IMG/VR virus record: IMGVR_UViG_3300012943_000051
Coordinates: 1-31,057 of that record
DNA: 31,057 nucleotides
DNA from: a virus
Lineage: Duplodnaviria > Caudoviricetes
Direction: 5' to 3' (one strand)
The position numbers and the translations under genes were made by a program. Numbering within the stretch: position 1 is the first letter of the stretch; each line of letters starts with the position of its first letter. Positions 1,748 to 22,308 of the stretch are shown in pieces. The notes under the pieces were generated by a model. It ran no database searches and was not told the DNA's origin. It was given only the letters and a program-made list of their open reading frames with translations.

Positions 1748-2339
1748 CCCCGACCTGGTGCTGCGACCCGATCAGCGCAGCGATCCGATGCTCTGGACCG
1801 TCCCGATGCCGGCCAAGTACCGGCCGCTGATCGAGGCCATCGACACCTCCACACCCTCGATGGAGCGGTTCGTCGGACCCGGTCGGGGCATGTCGCTCAA
1901 GTCCTTCGGGCACACCCCGAGCGGGGTGCACTTCCTGCTCACTCGGGCCGGCACCACGGTCCACGTCGACCCGGCGTACACCCGCTACAGCCATCAACTG
2001 ATCCTCCGCAACGACGGCAACCGCATCCGTGGACTACCTCGGTACGACAGTAGTGACTCCTCCAAGTGGCATTCACCGCTGGTCCCCGGGACCCTCTACG
2101 CCCTGGACACGCACTCCCCGCACCAGGGTCTGCACGACCCGCGCATCAGCCCCGCCGCCGGACTCAAGGCGGTGATCGCGGTGGACCGGGACCAGCCGCT
2201 GGACCCCGACGAGGTGTGGGAGCTGTTCCGCCCGTGGGTGGTGAGCGGCATCCAGTTCGCCGACGTGGCCCAGCCGGGCGACGTGCTCGCCTCGGTGAGC
2301 GCACCGCGCTGGCGGGACAACAAGGCCGGCGCTCGGTGA
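1734..2339 (+). CDS. putative 2OG-Fe(II) oxygenase / cupin-fold protein
   Basis: HxD (HVD) plus a distal His in GTLYALDTHSPH, the double-stranded beta-helix pattern; AGGA upstream of ATG1734 (alternative start 1725). Confidence 0.5.
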   Translation: MGTVDPDLVLRPDQRSDPMLWTVPMPAKYRPLIEAIDTSTPSMERFVGPGRGMSLKSFGHTPSGVHFLLTRAGTTVHVDPAYTRYSHQLILRNDGNRIRGLPRYDSSDSSKWHSPLVPGTLYALDTHSPHQGLHDPRISPAAGLKAVIAVDRDQPLDPDEVWELFRPWVVSGIQFADVAQPGDVLASVSAPRWRDNKAGAR

Positions 2340-2947
2340 CGGCAGGCGGTGGCTTGGTCACCCTGCCCCCGGTGTTCGTCACCGCCGTGCCGTGGGACCC
2401 GAAGCGGGCGGTGGCGGCGACCCGGATGGTGCAGTGGCTGCACTTGGCCGGGCACACCGCGACGGTGGTGTGGGACAAGCACCACGACCACTACGAGACG
2501 TTCGTCCGGATGCTGCGTTCGGCCGGCCAGGGCGCGGCGATCTTCCTGGAGGATGACATCGAGTTCACGTCGAACTGGGACGTGAAGATGGCGGCCGAGA
2601 TCGCCGCGCACCCGGACGTGCTGATCCAGACCTACTCGAACCGCAACGCCGACCTGACCTATGGTTCGCGGTGGGAGAAGGGCAAGTCCTACCTGAACAA
2701 CCAGTGCTGGTACGTCCCACCGGGGATGGCCGCGTCACTGGCCGACTATCTCGACACCTGGCCCAACCACCTGGACGGCACCGACCCGACGGGCACGGAC
2801 CTGGCGGTGAGCCACTACCTGCACGCCAATCGGCTGAGCTACTGGCTGGTCGCGCCGTCCCTCGTGCAGCACCGGGACTGGGTGAGCGCGATCAACCCGA
2901 AGCGCCCGCACGGCAAGATGCGGCAGAGCAAGTCGTACGTGCCGTGA
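2336..2947 (+). CDS. GT-A fold glycosyltransferase (GT25-like)
   Basis: AIFLEDD motif and C-terminal PSLVQH; GTGA overlap start. Confidence 0.7.
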   Translation: MTAGGGLVTLPPVFVTAVPWDPKRAVAATRMVQWLHLAGHTATVVWDKHHDHYETFVRMLRSAGQGAAIFLEDDIEFTSNWDVKMAAEIAAHPDVLIQTYSNRNADLTYGSRWEKGKSYLNNQCWYVPPGMAASLADYLDTWPNHLDGTDPTGTDLAVSHYLHANRLSYWLVAPSLVQHRDWVSAINPKRPHGKMRQSKSYVP

Positions 2948-3966
2948 CCGTCGAGACCTGGTCCGAGGTGTGGCCCGAGGACTTCATCACCACCGACGAC
3001 CTGGCCTGGTGGCTCGACCTCGCGCCGACACTGAGTTGGCGGTGGGCCACCACCTACGCCGACTCGGCCCCACACTCGTACGTGGTGCGGGACAAGGACC
3101 TCGACAGCACCCTGTTCGACCGCGCCGCCCGGGTGATCCGCACGTACGGTCGGCCGGGCAAGTTCTTCCGGTCCACCCAGCTCTACCTGTACGACCCGCC
3201 CGACTCCATCCCCGGCTCGGGCCGACCGATCCGGAAGTGGTGGACGATGAGCGGTCCGGTCTCGATCCAGGGCGTGATCAACACGACCGACGACGACCGG
3301 GTGTACGGGAAGCAGGACGCCCCGGACACCCGCTACCGCCCACCCAGGCCGCCCACCACGGTCATCGAGGACGACACCCGCGAGGTCTACGACGCCCTCG
3401 CGACGGCGTACGACGCGCGCTACGACCCGGCCCACTGCCCGCAGTGCACGACGGAGAACGAGGCGATCGCCCGGCTGATCCGCCGGCACTTCGGGGCGTA
3501 TGCACCCAGCACCCTCGACGTGGGCTGTGGGACCGGGCTCACGCTGGACCTGCACGTCACCGCGCCGGGCATCTACACCGGGGTGGACCCGAGCCAGGGC
3601 ATGCTGAACCAGCTCGTGCAGAAGCACCCGCGTGCGACCCGGCTGCTGCCGATGCGGATGGAGACGGCGCTGTCCGACCAACTCTTTGCCCCGCGCTCCT
3701 TCGAGCTGGTGGTCAGCCTGTTCGGCAGCCCCAGCTACCTCGAACCGTGGGCCATCTCCCCCATCGCGGAGCTGTCCAGTGACCTGACCGTGTTGATGCA
3801 CTACCGCCGCGGCTACTGGCCCTCGTACTGGCCGCACAAGCCCGCGCACATCGACGAGAGCCGGGAGGCGGCGGTCGAGCTGGTGGCCAGCCTGCTCACC
3901 GAGGGGCGTCGCCCCGCCCGCCAGTTCGACCTGGACGACATGGTCGTCACCGTGATCGGAGGCTGA
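2944..3966 (+). CDS. class I SAM-dependent methyltransferase with an N-terminal Trp-rich domain
   Basis: Motif I LDVGCGTG, then YTGVDPSQGML and FELVVSLFGS; N-terminal WRWATTY..APHSY...KWWTM domain. Confidence 0.8.
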   Translation: MTVETWSEVWPEDFITTDDLAWWLDLAPTLSWRWATTYADSAPHSYVVRDKDLDSTLFDRAARVIRTYGRPGKFFRSTQLYLYDPPDSIPGSGRPIRKWWTMSGPVSIQGVINTTDDDRVYGKQDAPDTRYRPPRPPTTVIEDDTREVYDALATAYDARYDPAHCPQCTTENEAIARLIRRHFGAYAPSTLDVGCGTGLTLDLHVTAPGIYTGVDPSQGMLNQLVQKHPRATRLLPMRMETALSDQLFAPRSFELVVSLFGSPSYLEPWAISPIAELSSDLTVLMHYRRGYWPSYWPHKPAHIDESREAAVELVASLLTEGRRPARQFDLDDMVVTVIGG

Positions 3967-3989
3967 GCGCCCAACAAGCGCGACCAATC

Positions 3990-5216
3990 ATGGGCAACGA
4001 CCTCGTGTTCACCGGCAAGGCCCGGCCGCACTACTTCCTGCCGGGCAATGTGTACGACGCTGCCCGCAAGAGGATCCGCTGGCTGTTCGACGAGTTCGAC
4101 GGGAAGGTCAGCGCCTCGGTGAGCGGCGGCAAGGACTCCACCGTGGTGGCGGAGCTGCTGGCCGACGTATCGCAAGAGCTGGGCTGCGGCCCGGCGCACC
4201 TGCACTTCCTGGACCAGGAGGCGGAGTACCAGGCGACCATCGACTACATGCGGCTGTACCTCGACCGCCCCGACCGTTACAAGCTGGACTGGTACCAGAT
4301 CCCGTTCCGGCTGTTCAACGCGGCGAGCTACGACGAGGAGTGGCTCTACGTCTGGGACACCCGGCTGGACGACAGCGGCTGGATCAGGCCGAAGGAACCC
4401 TCCTCGATCAAGGTGAATGACTTCTTCACGCCGCGCGGTCACCAGATCGACCGGTTCAAGGAGGTCCTCGGCGCGATGAACCAGCGCGACGGCGGGGCGA
4501 TCCTGACCGGGATGCGGTGCGAGGAGAGCCCGACCCGCCGGGTGTTCATGACCTCGGTCCCCTCGTACAAGTGGGCGACCTGGGCCTCGGCCGGCAAGCC
4601 GAAGGGCAGCTACTACCTGTTCCACCCGATCTACGACTGGTCCTACCGGGACGTGTGGAAGTCGATCCACGACAACGAGTGGGCCTACAACACCTTCTAC
4701 GACGTGCAGTTCCAGTACGGCATCCCGCTGCGAAACATGCGGGTCTCCTCGTTCCACCACGAGCTGAGCCTGGCCAGCCTGAACTATCTGCAGGAGGTGG
4801 AGCCGGACACCTGGGAGCGGGCGACCCGGCGGCTGGAGGGGCTGAACTCCTTCGCGCACGTCGGCGAGGACCAGTTCCAGCAGCGCGGCAAGCTGCCCTA
4901 CATGTTCGCCTCGTGGGACGAGTACCTGGAGTACCTGATCTGCAAGCTGATCCCGAAGCCGGAGAACCAGGACAAGTTCCGCCGGATGATCGTGCGTGCC
5001 ACCAAGGCCCTGCCGCAGCTGAGCCACGAGGAGGTGATGGTCTCGATGTCGGCGGCCATCATGGGCAACGACGTGTACGGCACCTCGGTCGACCAGTGGA
5101 TTAGCAGCAACACCCCGGCGGCCCGGCGCTACCTGGCCGGCGACCTGACCGCGGCGTCGACCGCCCGGCAGCGGGAGCTCGAACAGGAAGCGAGGTCCGC
5201 CAGCTATGCGGGCTGA
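3990..5216 (+). CDS. PAPS-reductase family PP-loop protein (IbrA/DndC-like)
   Basis: SVSGGKDS PP-loop, FLDQEAEY, GMRCEESPTR, HPIYDWSYRDVW and MRVSS; paired with an IbrB-like gene. Confidence 0.85.
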   Translation: MGNDLVFTGKARPHYFLPGNVYDAARKRIRWLFDEFDGKVSASVSGGKDSTVVAELLADVSQELGCGPAHLHFLDQEAEYQATIDYMRLYLDRPDRYKLDWYQIPFRLFNAASYDEEWLYVWDTRLDDSGWIRPKEPSSIKVNDFFTPRGHQIDRFKEVLGAMNQRDGGAILTGMRCEESPTRRVFMTSVPSYKWATWASAGKPKGSYYLFHPIYDWSYRDVWKSIHDNEWAYNTFYDVQFQYGIPLRNMRVSSFHHELSLASLNYLQEVEPDTWERATRRLEGLNSFAHVGEDQFQQRGKLPYMFASWDEYLEYLICKLIPKPENQDKFRRMIVRATKALPQLSHEEVMVSMSAAIMGNDVYGTSVDQWISSNTPAARRYLAGDLTAASTARQRELEQEARSASYAG

Positions 5217-6459
5217 GAACATGCCGGTCCACCCGAAGGGCGCCGATGGCCACCGGCTCGGCACCGCCTACATCGCGGAACGGGTGGCCGCCGCCAACGC
5301 GCTGATCGAGCAGGCGTTCGGGCTGCTGCCGTGGACCGACCCGGTGGGCCAGGTGCGGTGGGTACACATCGACCTGGTGCAGGCGAACGACTACAACCCG
5401 AACGCGGTGGCCTACCAGGAGATGAAGCTGCTGCACACCTCGATCAGTGAGGACGGCTACACCCAGCCGGTCGTTGCGATCATCGAGTCTCGCGTTGATA
5501 TCGTCCTACCATGCGGACATCTTTCAACGCTGACCCTGGATACCGCCCAGTTCCTGAAGGGGCTTTGCTGGGGTACTGCGCAGGACTACTTGATGGAGAG
5601 GGAAGCATCTCTTCCCCTCAAGGTCTCTCGCATCGCCACTCCCGATGGCGGGTCCAGATCAGCCAGTCCGCCGGCAACGACGGACGCGAACTCTGTGAAT
5701 GGCTCCGCGACCTCTGGTCCATCGGCAACGTCTACGAGCAGCGGGGATACTGCCTCGCCTATGTCTGGAACATCGCCAGAATCGGGGACGTCCAGCACTT
5801 CCTGGGATCATGTCTGCCCTACCTGCGAGTCAAGGCGCGTCGGGCAGCAGAAGTCCTGGCGACGATCGAGGCTGAGTCCGGCGGACTCCGTCGGGGTCGC
5901 TGGACTGACGCTGAGCTGGGATATCTCCGAGCGTGTGGCGAGTCAACCTCCGCCGATGCCATCGCCGGGATTCTCAACCGCAGCGCGTCCGCAGTTCGAT
6001 TCAAGAGAAACGAGCTTGGACTCCGACGCCCACCTCGTAGTGCGTGACCGATCCAAGGCGATCATCGTCGACGGCTTCCACCGATACACAGTCATGCGGA
6101 AGTATCCGGACATCTCGGCGCGGACGGCGGACCACCTCCCCCTCGTAGTCCTCGACAAGCCGATCACCGGCCGGATCGCGGCGACGGTGCGACACAACCG
6201 GGCGCGTGGCAAGCACAGCGTCACCGGCATGGGCAGCCTGGTGTTCCAGATGCTGAAGGAGGGCATGGCTCCGGAGGACGTCTGCAACAAGCTCGGTCTG
6301 GAGCCGACCGAGCTGGCCAGGCTGACCCACATCACCGGCTACTCCAAGCTGTACGGCGACGTGGAGTTCAGTCGCCCGGTGCTGACCAGCAAGCAGGTCA
6401 GCGCCAAGAGCAAGTACGCCGCCGCCCATCCCGACGAGCAGGTGCCGTCGGACTTCTGA
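5206..6459 (+). CDS. IbrB-like ParB/Srx-domain protein carrying a ~185-codon in-frame insertion
   Basis: ANDYNPN..V, GYTQPVV, IVDGFHRY and ATVRHNRARGKH. The normally short loop between GYTQPVV and IVDGFHR holds a long Ser/Thr-rich insert. Confidence 0.8.
   Translation: MRAENMPVHPKGADGHRLGTAYIAERVAAANALIEQAFGLLPWTDPVGQVRWVHIDLVQANDYNPNAVAYQEMKLLHTSISEDGYTQPVVAIIESRVDIVLPCGHLSTLTLDTAQFLKGLCWGTAQDYLMEREASLPLKVSRIATPDGGSRSASPPATTDANSVNGSATSGPSATSTSSGDTASPMSGTSPESGTSSTSWDHVCPTCESRRVGQQKSWRRSRLSPADSVGVAGLTLSWDISERVASQPPPMPSPGFSTAARPQFDSRETSLDSDAHLVVRDRSKAIIVDGFHRYTVMRKYPDISARTADHLPLVVLDKPITGRIAATVRHNRARGKHSVTGMGSLVFQMLKEGMAPEDVCNKLGLEPTELARLTHITGYSKLYGDVEFSRPVLTSKQVSAKSKYAAAHPDEQVPSDF
5511..6047 (+). 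CDS. LAGLIDADG homing endonuclease with C-terminal HTH, nested in an alternative frame inside the IbrB-like gene
   Basis: YCAGLLDGEGSI motif, VQISQ and LPYLRVKARRA; RWTDAE..L...IAGILNRSASAV HTH; codon usage differs from the host. Confidence 0.85.
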   Translation: MRTSFNADPGYRPVPEGALLGYCAGLLDGEGSISSPQGLSHRHSRWRVQISQSAGNDGRELCEWLRDLWSIGNVYEQRGYCLAYVWNIARIGDVQHFLGSCLPYLRVKARRAAEVLATIEAESGGLRRGRWTDAELGYLRACGESTSADAIAGILNRSASAVRFKRNELGLRRPPRSA

Positions 6460-6491
6460 CGGCCCGCCCAACCCGAGCAGAGAGGACCACC

Positions 6492-7088
6492 ATGGGACCC
6501 ATCGAGGTGGTGGAGCTGGACGCGGTGATTCCGTACTGGCGGAACCCGCGCACCATCCCGGACGACGCGGTGAACGCGGTGGCCGAGTCGATCCGGCGGT
6601 ACGGGCTGCAGCAGCCGATCGTCGTGGACTCGAACTCGGTCATCATCATCGGGCACACGCGGTACTCGGCGCTGCGCCGGCTCGGGTTCACGAAGGTGCC
6701 GGTCCGCCAGGCCACAGACCTGAGTCCGACCCAGGTGCGCGAGCTGCGGGTGATCGACAACCGCACGCACGAGTACTCCTCGTGGGACTTCGAGAAGCTG
6801 ACCGGCGAGCTGAGCGACCTGGACATCGCGCTGATGCAGGCGTTCTTCCCGGAGGCGGGTGTGATCGGCGACCCCGGCGCGGGCAGCGACTCGGACTACT
6901 ACCTCGAACCGGCGGACCCCGGGTCGGACTCCCGCATCGTGCGCGAGGTGGAGTTCGTCTGCCCCTCGTGCTTCCACACCTGGGAGATGCCGGTGTCCAA
7001 GGCGCAGGTCGCCACCGGCCTGCTCGATGTCAGCTCCGCCCCGCCCGTCACTGCCACTGCCACCCAGATCGCAGGAGCCCGAGCATGA
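6492..7088 (+). CDS. ParB N-terminal domain protein with a C-terminal CPxC ribbon
   Basis: PYWRNPR, YGLQQPIVVD, IIGHTRY, IDNRT and CPSCFHTW; GAGGA RBS. Confidence 0.85.
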   Translation: MGPIEVVELDAVIPYWRNPRTIPDDAVNAVAESIRRYGLQQPIVVDSNSVIIIGHTRYSALRRLGFTKVPVRQATDLSPTQVRELRVIDNRTHEYSSWDFEKLTGELSDLDIALMQAFFPEAGVIGDPGAGSDSDYYLEPADPGSDSRIVREVEFVCPSCFHTWEMPVSKAQVATGLLDVSSAPPVTATATQIAGARA

Positions 7089-7720
7089 CCGCCCCCTACA
7101 CCCGGCCCGACGGACCGCCGATGCCGGTCGAGCGCACGCTGGCCATCGAGGACATCAAGCCGTACTGGCGCAACCCGCGGCGCATCCCGCAGGATGCGAT
7201 CGACGCGGTGGCGGCCAGCATCGAGCGGTTCGGCTACCAGCAGCCGATCGTGGTGGACACCGAGAACGTGATCGTGGTCGGGCACACCCGGCACCAGGCG
7301 CTCAAGCAGCTCGGCTACACCAGCGTTCCCGTGTATGTCACCGACTTGCCCGAGAACAAGGTCCGCGAGTACCGGCTGGTCGACAACCGGACCAGCGAGA
7401 TGAGCGACTGGGACCACAGCGCCCTGGTGCTGGAGCTGCGGGAGTTCGAGACCGCGCTGCTGGACCGCTACTTCCCGGACGTGGATCTGGAGATCGGGGC
7501 CATCACCGCGGTGAACGACGTGACCTCCGGTGACGTGGACGAGGCGACCGGCAAGGTGAAGCGGGTGGCGGAGGCGGACCCGACGGCGACTCACACGACC
7601 AATGTGAAGTGCCCGGCCTGTTTCCACACCTTCGAGGTGCGGACCCGCTCGCTGCCCGGCCTGACCTACGACGACCTGTGGGAACTGGTCGAGGCGAGCA
7701 CCGGCACCGAGGCAAGCTGA
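7085..7720 (+). CDS. ParB N-terminal domain protein (tandem paralogue)
   Basis: PYWRNPR, FGYQQPIVVD, VVGHTRH, VDNRT and CPACFHTF; ATGA overlap; GGAG RBS. Confidence 0.85.
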   Translation: MTAPYTRPDGPPMPVERTLAIEDIKPYWRNPRRIPQDAIDAVAASIERFGYQQPIVVDTENVIVVGHTRHQALKQLGYTSVPVYVTDLPENKVREYRLVDNRTSEMSDWDHSALVLELREFETALLDRYFPDVDLEIGAITAVNDVTSGDVDEATGKVKRVAEADPTATHTTNVKCPACFHTFEVRTRSLPGLTYDDLWELVEASTGTEAS

Positions 7721-7725
7721 GCAGC

Positions 7726-8433
7726 GTGCCCCGCCGTACGGCTCCGCCGCCACCCTCACCAACCTCCACCGCGACCCGCCCTCGGCACCACCCGCCGAAG
7801 CACGACGCGGTGAGTGAGGTGCTGGCCGCGGTCGAGCAGTCCGGCGTGGACACCGACCCACTGCCCGAGCCCGGCTCCCTGGAAGCCCGGCGACGGGACC
7901 GGGAGCGGGTGCGGCGGACCGAAGCCTTGAGCCTTCGGCTGGCCGGGCTGACCTACGCCCAGATCTCCGAGCGGATGCGGATCAGCCACGACGCAGCCGA
8001 GGACATGGTCGACCGGGTGCTGGGCGAGGTGCGCGACCGGGGCGTGGCCGAGCTGCGGGAGCTGGAGGGTGCGCGGCTGGATCGGGCGCAGGCGGCGATC
8101 TGGACGCAGGTGCTGGAGGGTGACCTGAAGGCGGTCGACACCTTCCTGCGGCTGTCCTCGCGGCGGGCGAAGATGTTCGGCCTGGATGCGCCGACCAAGA
8201 TCGACCTGTCGCTGAACGTGCGGGCCGAGATGGAGCACGCGCTGGCCCAGCTCGAAGCGGTGGTGATGGGCGAGGTGGTCAGCGTGACGGACGTGCCGCT
8301 CCCGCGCTACCCGGAGACTCATGCCCAGCAGTACGACCCGTCCCACGCAGCTCCCGCCACCGGGCCAGCCGCATCAGGATCAGGCCCGTCATCGTCATCA
8401 CCGGACCATGATGACGCCCAGTTCGCAGGCTGA
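7726..8433 (+). CDS. terS: terminase small subunit (HTH)
   Basis: ALSLRLAGLTYAQIS HTH and RAKMFGLDAPTK; directly upstream of the large terminase. Start codon uncertain. Confidence 0.7.
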   Translation: MPRRTAPPPPSPTSTATRPRHHPPKHDAVSEVLAAVEQSGVDTDPLPEPGSLEARRRDRERVRRTEALSLRLAGLTYAQISERMRISHDAAEDMVDRVLGEVRDRGVAELRELEGARLDRAQAAIWTQVLEGDLKAVDTFLRLSSRRAKMFGLDAPTKIDLSLNVRAEMEHALAQLEAVVMGEVVSVTDVPLPRYPETHAQQYDPSHAAPATGPAASGSGPSSSSPDHDDAQFAG

Positions 8434-10141
8434 CCTCGGACCGATACCGGACGACCCGGTCGGGGCGATCGACGAGCTGCGCCGGTTGGCCGCGCAGTGC
8501 GGCAGCGACGCCGAGGCGCGGGCCATCACCAGCCGGATCGCCTCGCTGACCCGGGCTTATCGGATTACCCGCGGGATCGGGATGCCGCTGTCCCCGGTGG
8601 CGCAGGCGAAGGAGATCGACCCGCGCTTCGCCATCCGGCCGCACCTGGACCTGCTCGGTGAGCGGATCGCGGAGAACGTGCGGGCGGTGGAGCGCGGGCG
8701 CAACCGGATGGTGTGCGTCTCGATGCCGCCGAGAGCGGGCAAGTCCACCCTGATCTCGGTCTACACGCCGCTGTGGCTGCTGCGCCGGCACCCGGAGTGG
8801 CAGATCATCAGCGCCAGCTACGAGGGCGGGCTGCCCGCCGGGTGGGCGCGGCACGTCCGGCGGTTGATCGAGGCGGACCCGAACCTCGGGGTGGCGCTGG
8901 CACCGGACGGTGGGGCGGGCAGCCGGTGGTCGACCATCGAGGGCGGCGGGTTGTACTCGACCTCGGTGCGCGGTGCGCTGACCGGCCGCGGTGCGCGGGT
9001 GCTGCTGATCGACGACCCGGTGCGGGACTTCGTGGAGGCCCACTCGCTGGTGATGCGGCAGAACCTGTGGGACTGGTGGCTGAACGTGGCGCAGACCCGG
9101 CTCGAACCGCCCTACCTCGTGGTGGTCGTGATGACCCGGTGGCACGAGGACGACATGATCGGGCGGCTGCTCTCGGAGGACTACGAGGGCGACCCGCGCC
9201 AGTGGGAGCGGATCAGCCTGCCTGCCCTCGCGGAGGCGGACGACCCGCTCGGCCGGGGTGAGGGCGAGCCGCTGTTGTCCCCGCTGCTGACCGAGGACCG
9301 GAACGCGGCGATCGATCGGTGGCTGGACGTGAAACGGTCCGTCGGGACCTACACCTTCAGCGCGATGTACCAGCAGCGGCCGGCGCCGGCGAAGGGTGCG
9401 ATCTTCGACAGCGGGTGGTGGCGGTTCTGGACGATGAACTCCGAGCGGGCCACCGAGGACGGCCGGGTGGTCTATCTCGATCCGTCCAAGCTGACCGGCG
9501 GGCGCTGGGTGGACTCGTGGGACATGGCGTTCAAGGGCCGGGTGAAGGACACCGGCGGCGGTGGGTACGTCGTCGGCCAGCGGTGGGTCCGGCAGGGCGA
9601 CAACCGTTACCTGATCGCCCAGCAGCGGGGCCGGTGGTCCTTCGTGGAGTCCATCGCGGCGATGCGGCGGTGGGCCATCGCCGACAACCCGGGGCTGTCG
9701 CCGTGCGGGCACCTGGTGCACGAGCGGCTGATCGAGGAGGCGGCCAACGGGGCGGCCATCATCGACACGCTGAGCGATTCGATCAGCGGCATCAAGCCGA
9801 TCATCGCCAGCCTGGGCAAGGAGGTCCGGGCGCACGCGGTGACACCGGAGATCGAGAGTGGCAACGTCTACCTGCCGCATCCGGCGGACCCGGGCAACGG
9901 GTGGGTGAACGACTACCTCTCGGAGCTGCGGAACTTCCCGAACGATGTGGCCGACGACCAGGTGGACGCGACGACGCAGGCGCTGGCGGTGCTGCGGGTC
10001 GGCCGGCGCGGGCAGATCACCGTGCCCGGACGCCTCGCGCTGACCACCGGCAACCCGCAGTGGCAGGTCGGCCGGGACTACGCCCGAGCGGCGCTGTCCG
10101 ACCTGAACCGGCCGCGAGGTCGCCCGGCCGGCAGGTCCTAG
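8408..10141 (+). CDS. terL: terminase large subunit
   Basis: Walker A SMPPRAGKS, Walker B LLIDDP, VMTRWHEDD, nuclease motifs SWDMAFK and DDQVDA. Confidence 0.95.
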   Translation: MMTPSSQADLGPIPDDPVGAIDELRRLAAQCGSDAEARAITSRIASLTRAYRITRGIGMPLSPVAQAKEIDPRFAIRPHLDLLGERIAENVRAVERGRNRMVCVSMPPRAGKSTLISVYTPLWLLRRHPEWQIISASYEGGLPAGWARHVRRLIEADPNLGVALAPDGGAGSRWSTIEGGGLYSTSVRGALTGRGARVLLIDDPVRDFVEAHSLVMRQNLWDWWLNVAQTRLEPPYLVVVVMTRWHEDDMIGRLLSEDYEGDPRQWERISLPALAEADDPLGRGEGEPLLSPLLTEDRNAAIDRWLDVKRSVGTYTFSAMYQQRPAPAKGAIFDSGWWRFWTMNSERATEDGRVVYLDPSKLTGGRWVDSWDMAFKGRVKDTGGGGYVVGQRWVRQGDNRYLIAQQRGRWSFVESIAAMRRWAIADNPGLSPCGHLVHERLIEEAANGAAIIDTLSDSISGIKPIIASLGKEVRAHAVTPEIESGNVYLPHPADPGNGWVNDYLSELRNFPNDVADDQVDATTQALAVLRVGRRGQITVPGRLALTTGNPQWQVGRDYARAALSDLNRPRGRPAGRS

Positions 10142-10659
10142 CCCAGGATCAGCCTCAGTCTGGTACCCGGAGTCGGGGTGTCCTGCGAGCCGAAGATCGC
10201 CACCCGGACCGCGTTGATCGTGATCCACTGCGCGGTCGGTGGGTAGACGGGCCTGCCGCCCACGACGTACTGGCGGAAGGCGGTGACCGGCGGCGTGTCC
10301 GGGTCGTCGGTCAGCACGATGGTGTCCCCGACATCGAGCCCGGACAGGTCGTGCAGTGTGTCGTCGACGTCGGTGAGGGACAGCTGGATCTTCCGATTCG
10401 TCTCGCCCAGCACCTCGATGTGCACGCCGCCCGGTTCCACCGGCATCGAGGTAGTCCACTCCCAGACCCCGGCGTCACCGCCGCTGGTCGCGGGCAGCCG
10501 GGAGTACAGGTCCGTGATGGAGGCCAGCACCGAGGCGTTCTGCTGCTGCTGGGCGGCCAGGTACGAGGCGGTGCCCTGCATCAGCTCGACCCCTCGGTCG
10601 TACAGGTACTCGGGCGTGGGCAGGTCCCCGGGAGGTGTCGGCGTGAACGTCATGGACAT
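10138..10659 (-). CDS. hypothetical beta-rich protein, possibly a virion accessory protein
   Basis: Good codon bias on the minus strand; stop shares CTAG with the terL stop; start at 10653, 10659 or 10671. Confidence 0.65.
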   Translation of the reverse strand: MSMTFTPTPPGDLPTPEYLYDRGVELMQGTASYLAAQQQQNASVLASITDLYSRLPATSGGDAGVWEWTTSMPVEPGGVHIEVLGETNRKIQLSLTDVDDTLHDLSGLDVGDTIVLTDDPDTPPVTAFRQYVVGGRPVYPPTAQWITINAVRVAIFGSQDTPTPGTRLRLILG

Positions 10660-10669
10660 ACCCTGGACC

Positions 10670-10810
10670 ATGCCCGGGAGAGGCAAGTACAGGAGCATCA
10701 AGCTGCCGCGCGTCTACAACGCCCTCAAGCGCAAGGGCTACAGCAAGAGCAAGGCGGCGGCGATCAGCAACGCGATGGCGAACGGGTCGATCAACCGACG
10801 GCGGAAGTAG
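10670..10810 (+). CDS. small basic protein (46 aa)
   Basis: MPGRGKYRSIKLPRVYNALKRKGYSKSKAAAISNA; typical codons; TACCCT 5 nt before the ATG. Confidence 0.65.
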   Translation: MPGRGKYRSIKLPRVYNALKRKGYSKSKAAAISNAMANGSINRRRK

Positions 10811-10864
10811 CCCAAAGCGGCATCGGCGCTGGTCCGGTCGGGGTGCGCACCCTACCCTTGGCCC

Positions 10865-12922
10865 ATGCCTGAGCACGCTGCACTGCTGGCCCTTACCTCG
10901 ATGACGGCCGACGGCTGCGTGCCGTGCGCGCAGCGGTCCGCCGCGGTGCTGACGGTGGGGTACGACGCCGACGGGCGCGGTGTGTCGGCCGATCGAGTGA
11001 ATCTGGCTGACGACGTGGGGGATTCAGAGACCGACGCGACTTATACCCATACAACCCAGTGGTCCGGCGTGATCGGCGTCGAGGGCGAGCTGACCGGCGA
11101 CGGGCGGTTGATCGAACCGAACGCACTGCGCTGGGAGAACCTGCCGCTGCCGCTGCGCTACGTCAGCTCGGACGTGGGTGCGCACGACGGCGCGGTGGTG
11201 GTCGGCCGGATCACCTCGATCACCCGGGCCGACGGCGGCCAGATTCTCGGTGAGGGCGACTTCGACGTGTCCTCGACGTGGGGCGCGGAGGCCGCCCGGC
11301 AGGTCGGAGAGGGGCTGACCAACGGGGTCTCGATGGACCTGGACGACGTGGACTTCGAGCTGCGCATCGCGGGCGAGTTGATGGAGGACGACGGCCTGCT
11401 GCTGCCGATGTTCCTGGCCAGCGAGTCCCTCGATGCAGGCGAGGACACCGAGGACACGCCGTCCGACGAGCCCGAGACCGATGCCGACGGGCGGGTCACC
11501 GTGGCCACCATGAACGCTGACGACGAGGTGCGGGTGACCACCTCGGGCCGGATCAGGGCGGCGACCATCGTGGCGATTCCGGCTTTTGTAAACGCCCGTA
11601 TAGAGTTGACTGGTGAGCAAGCCGAAGACGCCAGCCTCGGAGCGGGTCTGGAAGCACATTCAGCGGGGAGCACCGGACGAGTGCTGGCTCTGGACGGGGT
11701 GGGCTTTCGCCCCGAAGCGCAATGGGGTACTGCGCGCGTACATCACCGAGGGTGGTCGGAGTCGGAAGTTCAAGGTCGTGGCCCGAGTGCTCTGGGAGAG
11801 TACGCAGGGTCCGATCCCACCGGGCCTGACCGTGGACCACACCTGCCAGAACACACTGTGCTGCAACGTATTCAGGCACTTCGAGCTGGTAACGGCAGCG
11901 GAGAACACGGCGCGGTACAACCGGGCGCGTGCTTTGTCGCTGTCAACCACCTGTGGGTTTGGGCACCCATTCAGCGAACAGAACACGCTGCTGGCGATGC
12001 GCCGACGCAAGGATGGTTCCACGTACGAGGTGCGGACCTGTCGAGCTTGCAAGTACGACCACGCTCGGAACCAGCGGACCTCGGACGGGGAGTTGGTTCG
12101 GACTCCCGCGTGGGTCTGACCGCGGCTGTCCCGGTCGATCCGCCCGCTGCCTGGTTCTCCAACCCGAACCTGCGCGAGCCGACCGCGATGCACTACGGCG
12201 ACGACGGCCGGGTGTACGGGCACATGGCGCTGTGGGGTACCTGCCACGTCGGCATCGGCCAGCACAACGGGACCTGCACCCCGCCGCCGCACTCAGCCAG
12301 CAACTACCAGCACTTCCACACCGGGGCGCTGCGCACCGCCGAGGGCAGCGAGATCGCGGTCGGGCACATCACTCTCGACACCCGGCACGCACCCGGCGCG
12401 GCGAATGCGGTGCGGGCGATGGCGCACTACGACCACACCGGGATGGTGGCGGCGGACGTGCGGGTGGGCGAGGACTCGCACGGCATCTGGGTGGCCGGCG
12501 CACTGCGGCCGGACGTGACCCCGACGCAGATGCGGGACCTGCGCAGCGCTCCCCTCAGTGGGGACTGGCGGCGGATCGGGTTCGCGCTGGAGATGGTGGC
12601 GAGCCTGTGCGTGAACGTGCCGGGGTACGGGGTCCCGCGACCCTCGGGCCTGGTCGCGGGCGGAGCTGTGGTCTCCCTGGTTGCGGCGGGGATGGTGGCT
12701 CCGAGGAAGGTCCGTCGACCGGGCACCGAGGGCGCGCTGAGCCTGGACGACCTGCGCTACCTCAAGCGGCTGGCCGACCGCGAGCGGGCCGAGGAGGCAG
12801 CGTTGGTGGCCTCTGGTTCGCTCGACACGGCCTCGGAGCTGGCCCGCCGGGTGCGGGCGTCCAGCCTGGCGATGCGGGTCCACCACCCGGCCAATCACCG
12901 GCCCGATCGAGGAGGGCAGTAG
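10865..12922 (+). CDS. capsid maturation protease (two-domain) with an in-frame insertion in the linker
   Basis: EGELTGDGR, AHDGAVVVGRI, GVSMDLDD and IRAATIVAIPAF; C-terminal domain PPAAWF.NP, GRVYGH.A.WGTCH and LSGDWR. Confidence 0.8.
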   Translation: MPEHAALLALTSMTADGCVPCAQRSAAVLTVGYDADGRGVSADRVNLADDVGDSETDATYTHTTQWSGVIGVEGELTGDGRLIEPNALRWENLPLPLRYVSSDVGAHDGAVVVGRITSITRADGGQILGEGDFDVSSTWGAEAARQVGEGLTNGVSMDLDDVDFELRIAGELMEDDGLLLPMFLASESLDAGEDTEDTPSDEPETDADGRVTVATMNADDEVRVTTSGRIRAATIVAIPAFVNARIELTGEQAEDASLGAGLEAHSAGSTGRVLALDGVGFRPEAQWGTARVHHRGWSESEVQGRGPSALGEYAGSDPTGPDRGPHLPEHTVLQRIQALRAGNGSGEHGAVQPGACFVAVNHLWVWAPIQRTEHAAGDAPTQGWFHVRGADLSSLQVRPRSEPADLGRGVGSDSRVGLTAAVPVDPPAAWFSNPNLREPTAMHYGDDGRVYGHMALWGTCHVGIGQHNGTCTPPPHSASNYQHFHTGALRTAEGSEIAVGHITLDTRHAPGAANAVRAMAHYDHTGMVAADVRVGEDSHGIWVAGALRPDVTPTQMRDLRSAPLSGDWRRIGFALEMVASLCVNVPGYGVPRPSGLVAGGAVVSLVAAGMVAPRKVRRPGTEGALSLDDLRYLKRLADRERAEEAALVASGSLDTASELARRVRASSLAMRVHHPANHRPDRGGQ
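11613..12119 (+). CDS. HNH homing endonuclease nested in the +1 frame inside the protease gene
   Basis: ECWLWTG, GPIPPGLTVDHTCQNTLCCN..HFELVT..EN and a C-terminal CxxGH...CxxC. Confidence 0.9.
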   Translation: MSKPKTPASERVWKHIQRGAPDECWLWTGWAFAPKRNGVLRAYITEGGRSRKFKVVARVLWESTQGPIPPGLTVDHTCQNTLCCNVFRHFELVTAAENTARYNRARALSLSTTCGFGHPFSEQNTLLAMRRRKDGSTYEVRTCRACKYDHARNQRTSDGELVRTPAWV

Positions 12923-12931
12923 GATAGCTAT

Positions 12932-13357
12932 GTGGAAAGAATCGACCCACTGATCCGGCTGCTTCGGAACTGCGACTGGGAGGACGGATGTCTGGTCTGG
13001 CAGGGGAGCGGGCCGAGGGAGTACGGAACGTTTCAACCCGGGACGCGTGCCTTAGATCCGAAAGAATACGTGCACCGGTTCGCGTACTTGAGGTTCGTGG
13101 GTTTGATCCCATCGGGCAAAGAGATCGACCACGTCGCCGCCCGTGGCTGCCACTCGAAGCGATGCATTCTCCCGTGGCACCTCGAAGCGGTGACTCACAG
13201 GGAGAATCGGAACAGGGCTCGACTCAAGGTGTGCCGAGCGGGGAAGCATGACCTCACCGATCCAGCCAACGTCAGATGGGATGGGAATGGTTGTCGTAGA
13301 GGCTGTCTCATCTGTCATCGCGAGCGAGCACTCGCCCGCTATCACGAGAGGGTGTGA
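12932..13357 (+). CDS. free-standing HNH homing endonuclease
   Basis: GCLVWQG, YVHR, EIDH...C..KRC..PWHLEAVT..EN and C..GKH...CLIC; lower GC than its neighbours. Confidence 0.9.
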   Translation: MERIDPLIRLLRNCDWEDGCLVWQGSGPREYGTFQPGTRALDPKEYVHRFAYLRFVGLIPSGKEIDHVAARGCHSKRCILPWHLEAVTHRENRNRARLKVCRAGKHDLTDPANVRWDGNGCRRGCLICHRERALARYHERV

Positions 13358-13636: not shown

Positions 13637-14425
13637 CTACCGCGAAGGTTTGTCAGCTCCGACGATCACGCAGCGGCAGTTGGCGGTCTGGCCGGTCGGT
13701 GCGGACGGGTCGCCGGGGTAGGGGAGGGTGTAGCCGCCGACGACGAACGAGCCGGTGAGCGGCACGGTCTGGCCGCTGGCGGAGGCGTGCGCGGGCCGGA
13801 CGTGCCGGTCGTGGTGGGAGACCCACCGCTTGTACTTCACACCGGCCCGGCCGAGGTCGACCAGCGAGGAGACGCCATAGGCTGCGGTGGCCTCGGTGCG
13901 GGCAATTCGCTCGGCGGTCGTTGCGTAGGTGAAGCCGCCCTCCTCGATGGTTGGGGCCCCTGCCGCGTCCGAAGGATCCTGGGTTCGCACCGAGGTGCCG
14001 CGGTCCGGGGCCAGCGCCAGCCGCAGCTCGGCGGTGGTCTTGGGCCGGGACCAGCTCTGCTGGGTGGAGGCGGTGAGCACCTCGACCGCGCTCGAATACG
14101 CCCGCGACGGCAGGTTCGACGACCGCAGCCGCTGCTGCATCCCGCGCAGGTACGCCTCGACGAAGGGGTCGGTGCCCTTACCGCGGCCGAAGAACCGGCC
14201 CACCGTGCGGCCGAAGCCCTCGACCACGGTCTCCCATAACCCGAGCACCGAGCCGAGGGTGAAGGGGTTGCGACCGGCGGCCAGCAGCACCGCGGTCGGC
14301 AGTGAGTCCTGGGCGGCGGAGTTCACCTCGCGCAGGAACACCCGCAGCGAGCGGTCCATCTCCCCGGTCAACTGGCGGTCCAGCCGGGCTCGGCCGGCGG
14401 TGGCGGCACCGGGCGATTCAGGCAT
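13637..14425 (-). CDS. MuF-like minor capsid (head morphogenesis) protein
   Basis: RIARTEAT, KRWVSHHDRHVRPAH and YPGDP...ANCRC. Confidence 0.88.
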   Translation of the reverse strand: MPESPGAATAGRARLDRQLTGEMDRSLRVFLREVNSAAQDSLPTAVLLAAGRNPFTLGSVLGLWETVVEGFGRTVGRFFGRGKGTDPFVEAYLRGMQQRLRSSNLPSRAYSSAVEVLTASTQQSWSRPKTTAELRLALAPDRGTSVRTQDPSDAAGAPTIEEGGFTYATTAERIARTEATAAYGVSSLVDLGRAGVKYKRWVSHHDRHVRPAHASASGQTVPLTGSFVVGGYTLPYPGDPSAPTGQTANCRCVIVGADKPSR

Positions 14426-14885
14426 CGACGGACTCCCGCCCTCGGGCCGGGGTCGTGGCCGTGAGCACCACGTAGACCGGCAGGTGCAGCTGGGTCTCGA
14501 AGCGGTAGTGCAGCTCGGCCAGGGTGTGCGGGGTGCCGGTGATCACCAGGTCGTGCACGTAGGCGTCGAGGCAGGCGGTCACCTGCAGCGCGGTGATGTT
14601 GCAGCAGCCGTGCGTGTTGAGCATGGCCGGGATGACGTCCCAGGCCCCGCGCAGCGCCTTGTCGACGATGTCGTCGGTGTCCTGCCAGCGGGTGTGCACC
14701 TGGTGCAGCGGGGTGCGGGCCGCGGCGGCCTCGGCGAACCGGCTGCGCCCGCCGACCCGGAGCAGCCAGCGGCCCATCGCCTCCAGCGCCTTGACCACCA
14801 GCACGTCGCAGACGGCGAGCAGGATCTGGCTCTGGTCGTGCGGGGTCTGCTGCCCGCAGACCGGGCAGCGGGCCTCGTCGATCAT
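14418..14885 (-). CDS. hypothetical protein coupled to the portal gene
   Basis: ATGA overlap with the portal stop; MIDEARCPVCG...VCDVLVVKALEAMGRWL...GAW...GTPH. Confidence 0.7.
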   Translation of the reverse strand: MIDEARCPVCGQQTPHDQSQILLAVCDVLVVKALEAMGRWLLRVGGRSRFAEAAAARTPLHQVHTRWQDTDDIVDKALRGAWDVIPAMLNTHGCCNITALQVTACLDAYVHDLVITGTPHTLAELHYRFETQLHLPVYVVLTATTPARGRESVDA

Positions 14886-16603
14886 CCGACGTACACCCGC
14901 CCGTTGCCGCTGACACCACTCGCAGCCAGTCCACCGGCCTCGGCCGGCGGCACTGACGGCGGTGCGCCGTCGGTGGTCGGCACCCCGCCACCCTCGGGCA
15001 CCCTCGGCGGCGGCGGCGCGGGTGGCAGGTTGCCGGTTGCTGCTGCCCCACCCGGAGCAGCAGGAGCAGGGGCCGCGGGCTCCGCCGTCGGGTCGCTGAC
15101 CATCGGGATGTCGCCGGCCAGCACCGCCCGGATCTGGGCCACCAACTGCGGGATGCCGGGGTTCTGCACCAGGGTCGGCGAGGTGCGGGCCATCTCCAGG
15201 GCCAGCACGACCTCCTGCGGCAGGACGGCGGCGACGGCCGGTGCGTCCGACTCGTCGAAGCCGGTGGCGTTGCGCACCGTCTCGTCGCTGATCACGCCGC
15301 GCTGGTGCAGGGCGAGCGCGTCCTGGCTCCGGTTCGGCCGGACCACCAGGTCGCTCACGTCGTACCAGACGACGTATTGCCGGGCGGCGTCCTCGTCCAT
15401 GCCCTGGGCGATCAGCACCGGCCAGAGGTACTGAGTGGTCAGCGCGTCGCAGATCAGCGCCAGCGGCGGCTCCAGGTGGGTGGTGACCACGTCCTCCTGG
15501 ACCAGCCAGGCTCCCCAGTGGTTCATCCCCGACGTGCCGAGCAGCAACTCGGGCGGGGCGTCCTGACCTAGCGCCAACCGGCGGATCGCCTCGTCCCGCA
15601 GGTTCCGGCTCTCGGTGTCCAGCGGCTTGGCGAAGGTGATGAACTCGAACAGCCCGGCCGCGTCGTCCGGCACCGTGACCACCAGCGGTACCAGCGCGGA
15701 GGCGTTGGCCCGGTCCTCGATGGGCTTGAGCATGGCCTCCATCAGGGCCTCGGTGAACTGGTCGGTCATCTCGTCCTCGGGGATGCCCGCGGCGATCTGC
15801 AGTGCCCGCTGCGCCGACTGCGGCACGATGAGCAGCCCGGCCCCGGCCAGGCGAGAGTCCACCTGTGCGGAGATGTGCATGGTCAGGCCGACCAGCTCGC
15901 GCAGGACAGGCAGGCTCGACCTGGTCGGGGAGTCGGCCTCCCAGAACCGCCGCGGGTGCGGTCGCCAGACCCGGATCAGCCAGATGTCCTCCGGCTCGAC
16001 CTTGATCTGCTCCTTCTCGCCGTCGCCGAGCGCAAGCTGCACCTGGCCACCGGCCGAGCTGCTCACCTCGGAGACCGAGAGCATCCGCCATTCCAGGTCC
16101 TCGATGTCCAGCTCGCCGTCTTCGGTGCCGGGCCGGATACCAAGGCTGGCACCGCTCGGGCCGACCGAGACCGACCGGACCTGGGTCTCGTCCAGCGACA
16201 GCCCGCCGCGCAGCGTCTCAGGCAGCAGAGTGCGCGGGATGCCGGCCAGCCAGCCGTCGCCGGCGACGAACAGGTTGATGCCCATCCGGTTGAGGATCGC
16301 CGAGCGGCCGGCCATCGAGGACCCGAAGGCTTTCAGAACGGCGGCCACGTCGGTGTTCTCGGTGGGCACCGGATCGTCGGTGTCGTCCTGCGGCATGGTG
16401 CCGACGTAGAGCTTGGCCTGGGCCAGCCGACCGGCCAGCGTGGTGGCCAGGAAGCGTTGCTCACCGACCAGGTCGAACATCTCCCAGGCGTCCTCCTGCC
16501 AGCTCTTGGCGTTGGAACCCTGCCGCGTCATGGTGCGGTTGGTGAGGCGGCGGGCGGAGGCGACGAGTGAGGTCAGCGGGCGCGGCCCGGCAGGCGCGGT
16601 CAT
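14882..16603 (-). CDS. portal protein
   Basis: WQEDAWEMFDLVGE, RVWRPHPRR..EADSP, SRLAGAGLL, RRLALGQDAPPELLLG and NHWGAW; Pro/Ala-rich tail. Confidence 0.88.
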   Translation of the reverse strand: MTAPAGPRPLTSLVASARRLTNRTMTRQGSNAKSWQEDAWEMFDLVGEQRFLATTLAGRLAQAKLYVGTMPQDDTDDPVPTENTDVAAVLKAFGSSMAGRSAILNRMGINLFVAGDGWLAGIPRTLLPETLRGGLSLDETQVRSVSVGPSGASLGIRPGTEDGELDIEDLEWRMLSVSEVSSSAGGQVQLALGDGEKEQIKVEPEDIWLIRVWRPHPRRFWEADSPTRSSLPVLRELVGLTMHISAQVDSRLAGAGLLIVPQSAQRALQIAAGIPEDEMTDQFTEALMEAMLKPIEDRANASALVPLVVTVPDDAAGLFEFITFAKPLDTESRNLRDEAIRRLALGQDAPPELLLGTSGMNHWGAWLVQEDVVTTHLEPPLALICDALTTQYLWPVLIAQGMDEDAARQYVVWYDVSDLVVRPNRSQDALALHQRGVISDETVRNATGFDESDAPAVAAVLPQEVVLALEMARTSPTLVQNPGIPQLVAQIRAVLAGDIPMVSDPTAEPAAPAPAAPGGAAATGNLPPAPPPPRVPEGGGVPTTDGAPPSVPPAEAGGLAASGVSGNGRVYVG

Positions 16604-18040: not shown

Positions 18041-18136
18041 TGGCGAAACCCTTGTGCCGCATTGCCGGCGAGGGGTCCGTTGGACTTGCCCAGTCCGGCG
18101 CTGATGAGCCAGGGCACTCCAGAGAGGGAGCGAGCA

Positions 18137-21127: not shown

Positions 21128-21457
21128 ATGAGTTACGTCGTTCAGTTCAGCGAGGGCGTGCGGGTCAAGGCCGCCGGCTTCGTGGGCCAGGGCCGGGTGG
21201 CCCGGGTGCCCGGCCAGAAGGACCTGTGGGAGGTGAAGGGCTGGGGCGGCACCTATCGGGTGCGCACCAACCCGCAGTTCGATGGCCCCGAGCAGGAGCT
21301 GCGGTGGTTCGTCTGCACCTGCCCGTACAGCGATCACGCATCGCCCACGCTGGTGGATTGCAGCCACTCGCTGGCCGTGATTGTGATGGCCGAGGCCGCC
21401 CATCGTGGTCGCGTTGCCCGGACCGCGGATTGCCGGATGGCGGTGGTGGTCCCGTGA
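21128..21457 (+). CDS. SWIM-type zinc finger protein
   Basis: CTCP...CSH (CxC-xn-CxH); GAGAGGGAG RBS. Confidence 0.75.
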   Translation: MSYVVQFSEGVRVKAAGFVGQGRVARVPGQKDLWEVKGWGGTYRVRTNPQFDGPEQELRWFVCTCPYSDHASPTLVDCSHSLAVIVMAEAAHRGRVARTADCRMAVVVP

Positions 21458-22308
21458 GCGTCCGCCGGATGATGAAGTACGAGGATGTGCCTCCGGGCCA
21501 GGTCGAGCGGTACCTGATCAGCCCGCTGTGGGCCGTCGAGCAGAAGATGGACGGCACCCGCGGCCTGGCCGTGATCACCAAGGGCGGCGTGATCTGGCCC
21601 TACGGCGAGCGCGGCGAGGGGCGGCTGGCCCACTCTGCGGCCACCCAGTGGCTGCCGAGAATCGATGCCCGGCTGCTGGCGCTGGTGGCCGACCACGAGG
21701 ACGCGGAGATCGTCCTGGACGGCGAGATCATGATCCACACCGGCGAGTACCGGGTCTTCGACGTGCCGTACCTACGGATCGGCGGCCGGGAGTGGGTGGT
21801 GCCTGGTGACGCCCTGTCGCAGCGGCGCATCTACCTGGAGACCATCGGTGCGGCCCTGCACGGGGCGGGGCCGGTGACGGTGACCAGCTTCGCCTCCACC
21901 GAGGACGAGAAGCGGGCGCTGCTGGCGGCGGTCGAGGCGGCCGGTGGCGAGGGCGTGGTGTTCAAACGGCTCACCGGGTCCTACCAGCCGGGTCGGCGGA
22001 CCGGTGACGTGCTCAAGTTCAAGTTCACCTACTCGGTGGACGTGGTGGTCATCGAGCGGAAGACGAGCCCGAACTCGATCACCTTCGGGGTGTACGACGA
22101 GGCCGGCGTACTGAGGACGATCGGATCCTGTTCGATGATCGGAAAGCCGCACGTTGGGCAGGGTGACGTGGTTGAGGTGATGTGCCTCTACTGGACTGGA
22201 ACCTCCCTCTACCAGCCGAGAATGGTCCGTCAGCGGTTCGACAAGATGCCCCGTGATTGCACGACGGCCCAGCTTCGTGCCTACAGCCGAGATGCGGCCA
22301 AGGTGTGA
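21454..22308 (+). CDS. minimal ATP-dependent DNA ligase
   Basis: Motif I EQKMDGTR, III LDGEI, IIIa VFDV, IV EGVVFK, V LKFK; OB-fold end YQPRMVRQRFDK. Confidence 0.9.
   Translation: MSVRRMMKYEDVPPGQVERYLISPLWAVEQKMDGTRGLAVITKGGVIWPYGERGEGRLAHSAATQWLPRIDARLLALVADHEDAEIVLDGEIMIHTGEYRVFDVPYLRIGGREWVVPGDALSQRRIYLETIGAALHGAGPVTVTSFASTEDEKRALLAAVEAAGGEGVVFKRLTGSYQPGRRTGDVLKFKFTYSVDVVVIERKTSPNSITFGVYDEAGVLRTIGSCSMIGKPHVGQGDVVEVMCLYWTGTSLYQPRMVRQRFDKMPRDCTTAQLRAYSRDAAKV

Follow-up and report, generated by a model that had tools for sequence, protein, structure and literature searches.

Two endonuclease genes nested in open host frames

We analysed a linear virus record of 31 kb, referred to below as the window (IMG/VR record IMGVR_UViG_3300012943_000051, Caudoviricetes; 31,057 nucleotides, estimated completeness 50%), in which two genes on the + strand each enclose a complete homing endonuclease gene in a shifted reading frame. 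The first host gene (5206..6459) encodes a 417-residue protein of the ParB/Srx fold, as judged from its PHROG match, an alignment of homologues and a structure model; the label IbrB is taken from a first-pass annotation made from the sequence alone, the PHROG assignment being phrog_2159. This gene encloses, in the -1 frame at 5511..6047 (+), a 178-residue single-motif LAGLIDADG endonuclease of the I-CreI-like type with a C-terminal tail, recognized from the list of open reading frames (ORFs), Pfam and a profile comparison with structures. The second host gene (10865..12922, +), identified by PHROG and homologues as capsid maturation protease-like, encodes 685 residues and encloses, in the +1 frame at 11613..12119 (+), a 168-residue HNH_3 endonuclease situated in the inter-domain linker (ORF list, Pfam and PHROG). 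The first-pass annotation had reported both nested ORFs; their coordinates and frames hold, and both host frames run through their inserts without a stop. A free-standing HNH_3 gene at 12932..13357 (+; Pfam), which the annotation had offered as an internal control, does behave as one, with 5 and 2 stops in its two other frames. Logan contigs from the probable source run extend across both inserts without a single difference or gap, which, though not independent evidence, argues against an assembly artefact at the inserts.

The ParB-fold host and its relatives

The alignment to homologues, a check that the annotation had proposed for both hosts, placed the ends of the dual-coding insert in the ParB-fold gene approximately (5485..6050, +), in a hairpin between the QPVV and IVDGFHR motifs; for the protease it located the HNH gene in a naturally variable linker. 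The insert adds about 185 residues (a motif spacing of 206 in the window protein versus 21, the commonest empty spacing), and the hairpin loop of empty alleles takes as many as about 30 extra residues. Its length is approximately that of the 537-nucleotide ORF plus a 12-nucleotide promoter/spacer, in agreement with the earlier statement that no spare room is left for a ribozyme core. The read-through structure model retains the Srx/ParB fold across the insert and superposes on sulfiredoxin with a Z of 9.6 and a root-mean-square deviation of 2.4 over 89 aligned residues. The LAGLIDADG ORF falls under the Pfam cutoff (13.9 versus 23.1), but a four-sequence profile matches the I-CreI and I-MsoI structures with E values of 1e-14 to 1e-5, and G-x-x-D-G-E-G, Q52 and K108 are invariant among the 4 aligned sequences; the LAGLIDADG helix of such enzymes bears an acidic catalytic residue, accompanied by a conserved Gln and Lys.

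Among the best 120 of 2055 homologues, 15 proteins besides that of the window have a long insert between DGYT/QPVV and IVDGFHR, with a spacing of 196-230 in the 14 measured proteins (P0012, whose insert was judged by eye, is not among them) versus 21-53 in empty ones. A search of 1.84 billion representatives with an insert profile gave 15 matches, 11 of them new. The hosts include members of the IbrB-like family, the Spo0J-type ParB family (QPIxVR...VAGERR) and another ParB-N family, the hairpin position being constant throughout. A LAGLIDADG motif in the -1 frame is compatible with each of the 26 host-frame peptides tested (scores 53-76 versus 34-52 for 24 controls), and the lowest of these scores may point to nucleases in decay within hosts that are still open. 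Stop-tolerant searches recovered relatives with DNA, namely L025 and L023/L026 (L026 lies on the L023 contig); the L025 and L023 nucleases are intact, 51% and 42% identical to that of the window, and both of these non-self nested copies have open host frames, in contrast to the frequent host-frame stops in orthologous inserts that the annotation had named as evidence against its proposal. The endonuclease alignment search also gave three distant copies, which lie outside ParB genes and whose shifted frames contain many stops. As a protein, the LAGLIDADG endonuclease matched just 2 sequences, versus 25 other host-frame copies, and no match to it was found in viral or genome contigs; GenBank phages yielded 2 weak matches, both annotated. 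The insert is rare: none of the 79 measurable viral ParB/IbrB loci (from the best 80 of 596 confirmed ones) contains it.

In a quick tree of the host parts of 71 sequences (21 with the insert and 50 empty ones drawn at random from about 100), the insert label changes 9 times against a shuffled mean of 18.3, with at least 3 changes forced by well-supported branches. The patchy labels fit lateral spread or repeated loss. Two other kinds of insertion occur at or near this site. A conventional intein site lies a few codons before the hidden-endonuclease site in the ParB/IbrB-like gene (P0012, P0029), P0012 having both elements. Further, P0025, P0031, P0056, P0076, P0081 and P0118 are endonuclease-free and have short Cys/His-rich inserts in the same hairpin, which may be remnants or independent zinc knuckles.

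Stop avoidance and the host-frame peptide

Synonymous shuffles matched for GC content at third codon positions (GC3) predict 6.05 host-frame stops for the window LAGLIDADG ORF and 3.9 for the nested HNH, with 0 observed in either (P=0.0003 and P=0.015); for the three LAGLIDADG copies with DNA the expectations are 6.1, 7.0 and 8.4, again with 0 observed in each. The stop depletion that the first-pass annotation had suggested looking for is thus found for both inserts in this test, whereas permutation of the genes' own codons recovers it only for the HNH (P=0.012, versus P=0.24 for the window LAGLIDADG). The gap between the two tests for the LAGLIDADG arises because its own codon usage is already shifted off G-ending Leu/Val codons, which create a host-frame TGA: these make up 7/27 (window), 8/33 and 4/23 of such codons in the three copies, compared with 41/55 in ibrA, the PAPS-reductase/DUF3440 (IbrA-like) partner of the ParB-fold host gene at 3990..5216 (+; Pfam, PHROG), and 66/96 in the capsid gene. 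The nested HNH has T-ending codons before GA/AA/AG at 0 of 34 positions versus 19 of 133 elsewhere. As a rough background, since some genes were mis-framed, a shifted frame is open in 41/220 and 61/220 windows of ordinary genes; hence a single open frame is weak, and it is the relatives that carry the case. The three LAGLIDADG DNA copies are divergent (GC3 0.57-0.65), use different codons at 36/85, 34/61 and 34/58 shared residues (42-59%), and are all open.

The peptide encoded by the host frame of the ParB insert has conserved features of its own. In a 25-row insert alignment (P0012, P0247, P0244, P0253 and P0254 were left out) we found a C103-G-H105 motif near its start (5512..5520, +; C in 23/25 rows and H in 20/25) and a C204-P-T-C207 motif in its later part (5815..5826, +; each Cys in 23/25 rows), the latter lying over L-P-Y-L-R of the endonuclease. 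The complete CxH and CPxC set is present in 20 of the 25 copies. C204 and C207 fall on endonuclease Leu codons and need a G at the synonymous position, which is present in 23/24 and 23/25 rows respectively, versus 76/304 in other well-filled Leu columns, and two Trp columns of the host-frame peptide display the same synonymous-site pull; the peptide looks, on this evidence, to be under selection. In the DNA of L023 the P-C dipeptide stands about ten codons ahead of where the nuclease begins, and the nuclease frame is interrupted by a stop; in other rows the nuclease apparently starts 10-18 codons later, in many at a later Trp codon, as deduced from the peptides; CxH is thus retained where the host frame alone is coding. 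An AlphaFold model of the read-through protein has a predicted local distance difference test (pLDDT) score of about 90 for each motif, and stretches of the intervening peptide are disordered. The insert-only model, considered also with the Hint fold of inteins in mind, is of modest confidence and reached a best Z of 4.2, to unrelated folds; that no known fold was found for it implies neither novelty nor difference.

CxH plus CxxC resembles half of a RING-type zinc site, and the conservation pattern and the model together suggest that CxH and CPxC form a predicted zinc clasp joining the two ends of the loop. One may tentatively go a step beyond this, to an idea that we regard as possible but would not yet favor: the LAGLIDADG element could have evolved a mini-domain in its second frame, a zinc-clasped insulator doing the job of an intein without splicing, which would hold the hairpin ends such that any ParB/Srx-fold protein could fold around a 190-residue parasite, and which would have enabled a single element to move among ParB families, the IbrB-like and Spo0J-type ones included, unseen by gene callers.

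The nested HNH of the capsid protease

The nested HNH displays the DH..N..H..N core of the HNH_3 family and scores 37.5 bits against a curated Pfam cutoff of 24.8. It takes up most of a protease linker that varies from 26 to 621 residues among homologues and that elsewhere houses other domains, even an intein. Among 40 protease linkers of 120-450 residues, 3 fit +1-frame HNH motifs, namely those of the window, P0164 (same HNH type) and P0183 (another type); the distribution is patchy here too, as seen from these long linkers without a tree. None of the 66 measurable viral protease loci (from the best 80 of 518) contains a nested HNH, and as a query the nested HNH found 16 distant loci, of which 7 were inspected and none appeared nested. 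The protease case is one DNA copy with two protein-only leads. Among GenBank phages there were 380 HNH records, and the 60 among the matches listed are annotated as HNH, endonuclease or hypothetical.

Several side observations concern the same region. The true intein of P0153 is located in the same protease linker, and the HNH-compatible insert of P0183 (residues about 590-790) is bordered by a duplicated host peptide. Relatives of the free-standing HNH, 48-51% identical to it, lie directly after the protease gene in other phages (L150, L154 and L169, at about 2680-3090), each with a TANNNT-like stretch shortly upstream.

Expression signals

A TANNNT scan identified a -10-like hexamer 6 nucleotides before each endonuclease start of the window: TATCGT (5499..5504, +) before the LAGLIDADG ATG, TAGAGT (11601..11606, +) before the HNH GTG, and TAGGAT (12920..12925, +) before the free HNH, the TAG of the last being the protease stop codon. 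The spacing is exactly 6 nucleotides at 5/5 endonuclease starts with DNA (the three of the window, L025 and L023). Across the window, the TANNNT-N6 pattern, which was noticed post hoc, precedes 4 of 1886 ATG/GTG triplets, these being the three endonuclease starts and the protease start. Further, GC3 in the 14 host codons ahead of each nested start drops from 0.93-0.94 to 0.43-0.57 (for the HNH, from 0.93 to 0.43). A sigma-70 two-hexamer scan, which needs a -35 match, found no promoter; in mycobacteria TANNNT without a -35 element and leaderless mRNAs are common, according to the available text of PMC3898074. Each nuclease is likely to have its own leaderless transcript from a predicted promoter in recoded host codons, and the recoding might also shield the occupied allele from cutting.

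Interpretation and rival explanations

The combined evidence makes it probable that both inserts are splicing-free, read-through homing elements. Each is a complete endonuclease gene in a shifted frame inside a phage gene whose own frame stays open. Under this explanation ribosomes would read the host gene through without interruption, and the insert would form an extra loop of the host protein; a short leaderless transcript of its own would supply the endonuclease, whose cutting of insert-free alleles would lead to copying of the element into them. In the ParB host the insert occupies an intra-domain hairpin; the host-frame peptide is predicted to be partly folded there, and zinc at CxH and CPxC would hold the loop ends. 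In the protease, the natural length of the linker runs from 26 to over 600 residues, so no special device would be needed for the insert to be tolerated. The annotation had likewise proposed a tolerated, translated loop or linker, and this is the best-supported reading, with the implied selection seen in stop avoidance, conserved residues and the retained fold; it needs amending in that the ParB loop is probably not inert, because its host-frame Cys, His and Trp are conserved.

Several points weigh against this explanation. Protein searches return only hosts with an open frame, and just 2 DNA copies are unbiased; own-codon permutation is insignificant for all three LAGLIDADG copies (P 0.24, 0.36, 0.07). 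P0244, P0250 and P0253 are fragments on contigs of 1.2-2.7 kb, of which only P0244 clusters with a full-length protein, and a LAGLIDADG of 54% identity that was called as a separate gene (P0241) could sit in a broken host. For the protease, the +1-frame HNH motifs were composed after visual reading of P0164 and P0183, both protein-only, and in BLAST neither of these showed host-frame similarity to the window insert. As regards the peptide, in the window's subgroup P-C coincides with the ATG and I-V-L with the -10 hexamer, such that the other frame accounts for them in part, and the confidence of the insert model (predicted template modelling score 0.46-0.54; 0.46 for the insert alone) may leak from the endonuclease frame. 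Against the clasp in particular, five of the 25 rows are without the full C/H/C/C set, P0027 alone losing both halves together, and the insert profile search was biased toward CPxC-bearing rows.

Removal of the insert by unrecognised splicing, through an atypical small intron or intein, deserves attention, as actinophage introns of unclear type exist and do splice (PMC3706429, available text), inteins with out-of-frame endonucleases appear in the available portions of two preprints (bioRxiv 10.1101/2025.01.02.630785; bioRxiv 10.64898/2026.09.14.751524), and in the ParB insert a Cys close to the start is nearly invariant and a position close to the end is mostly Ser/Thr. We nevertheless consider it unlikely: the residue before this Ser/Thr is variable and not Asn/Gln, which upholds the earlier statement that the host-frame peptide has no intein C-terminal motif; the insert barely exceeds promoter plus ORF; and the Rfam scan for group I/II introns that the annotation had called for matched none over the inserts or elsewhere in the window, though atypical introns could escape covariance models. 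Junction pairing is not above controls, folding is not unusual (z-scores of -1.68 and -1.16), and RNA splicing would leave stop avoidance and the conservation of host-frame residues unexplained. Ribosome hopping over the insert or DNA excision could be envisaged at a 10-nucleotide direct repeat (5476..5485, + and 6058-6067), the copies being in frame and 582 nucleotides apart. However, the first copy is unconserved in relatives, and we judge the repeat incidental. The product would have about 11 codons from DGYT to VDG, versus 18-33 in all 79 measurable empty viral alleles, and a repeat joint was not seen in the source-run contigs. Bypass in T4 gene 60 involves an in-frame stop after the take-off codon and a matched landing codon, whereas the host frame here has no in-frame stop; we regard this explanation as very improbable.

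Finally, the host proteins might be inactive or dispensable, the open frames then reflecting chance in GC-rich DNA together with ascertainment. The ParB-like host has no established function and need not be essential, a shifted frame is open in roughly a fifth to a quarter of the ordinary-gene windows, and protein searches select open frames. Yet the three divergent DNA copies are all open, host domains are conserved on both sides of the insert, the contig, which is half complete, showed no protease gene besides this one, and phages generally cannot do without their capsid protease, making this alternative quite unlikely as well. A genes-in-pieces arrangement of the Aeh1 nrdA/mobE type was rejected, as both hosts remain single ORFs.

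Genomic context

The terminase, portal, protease and capsid genes of the window are closest to those of Microbacterium, Mycobacterium and Gordonia phages. Before the terminase, at 2066-7720, glycosyltransferase-like, methyltransferase and PAPS-reductase-like genes are clustered with three ParB-like genes in a possible DNA-modification module. A MuF-like gene (13637-14425) and the portal gene (14882-16603) are on the - strand, opposite to the terminase, protease and capsid genes; a small - strand gene that starts near 14880 corresponds to the last part of the same portal PHROG, and two ORFs thereby match this one profile. An ATP-dependent DNA ligase-like ORF (21226-22308) lies directly ahead of the major capsid gene, and at 18041-18118 the Rfam match to hammerhead type II is weak, its 27.7 bits falling short of the gathering score of 37 (E 0.094).

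Relation to known systems and implications

The annotation had raised the possibility that this strategy is undescribed. The same proposal has in fact been published for out-of-frame HNH genes with open host frames in mycobacteriophage methylases, for which read-through and leaderless initiation were proposed computationally (Arsenault, Gosselin, Gogarten 2025, PMC11855218). As far as its available text goes, the ShiLan domain and Pacc40 gp60 share with our inserts an out-of-frame endonuclease that fills nearly the whole insert, a host frame without stops, no detected intron or intein, a patchy distribution, and a suggested read-through and leaderless start with no bench test. By comparison with the same text, the window differs in having a LAGLIDADG in the -1 frame besides an HNH in the +1 frame, in its hosts (several ParB/Srx-fold families and a capsid protease rather than methylases), in a host-frame peptide with conserved CxH/CPxC and partly confident structure where that of ShiLan is mostly of low confidence, and in an explicit TANNNT-N6-start.

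Inteins with out-of-frame or antisense endonucleases likewise overprint a translated host-frame segment, but in the available portions of both reports (bioRxiv 10.1101/2025.01.02.630785; bioRxiv 10.64898/2026.09.14.751524) a splicing domain surrounds the endonuclease, whereas here there is neither an intein C-terminal motif nor room for such a domain. Actinophage group I introns in capsid and tail genes also place an endonuclease inside a virion-assembly gene, but those in the available text of PMC3706429 are spliced and have host-frame stops and a ribozyme core, none of which is seen here. The T4 mob/seg genes and Aeh1 nrdA/mobE are, like ours, intronless homing endonucleases beside or within conserved genes (PMC2988022, available text). 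In the window the overlap is total and the host is one ORF. The T4 and Aeh1 endonucleases, by contrast, overlap their neighbours by tens of bases at most or split the host. In the literature searched, which left most subscription papers outside, neither an intein-free out-of-frame LAGLIDADG in ParB genes nor a nested HNH in a capsid protease was found. The window case is thus not categorically new but a well-supported variant of a recently described strategy; what is new is the LAGLIDADG/ParB family, the apparently selected, predicted zinc-clasp peptide and the promoter signature.

With these elements, overprinted homing without splicing would reach beyond HNH genes in methylases, to LAGLIDADG genes and to a virion-assembly gene that is probably essential. 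The TANNNT-N6-start pattern offers a concrete answer to the question of hidden endonuclease expression left open in the available text of the 2025 paper (PMC11855218). Gene callers list the host ORF but overlook the nuclease inside it, and homing endonucleases of phages are therefore probably undercounted. In the ParB element, a new protein module may have arisen in a second frame under selection, and the case is compact enough to be tested.

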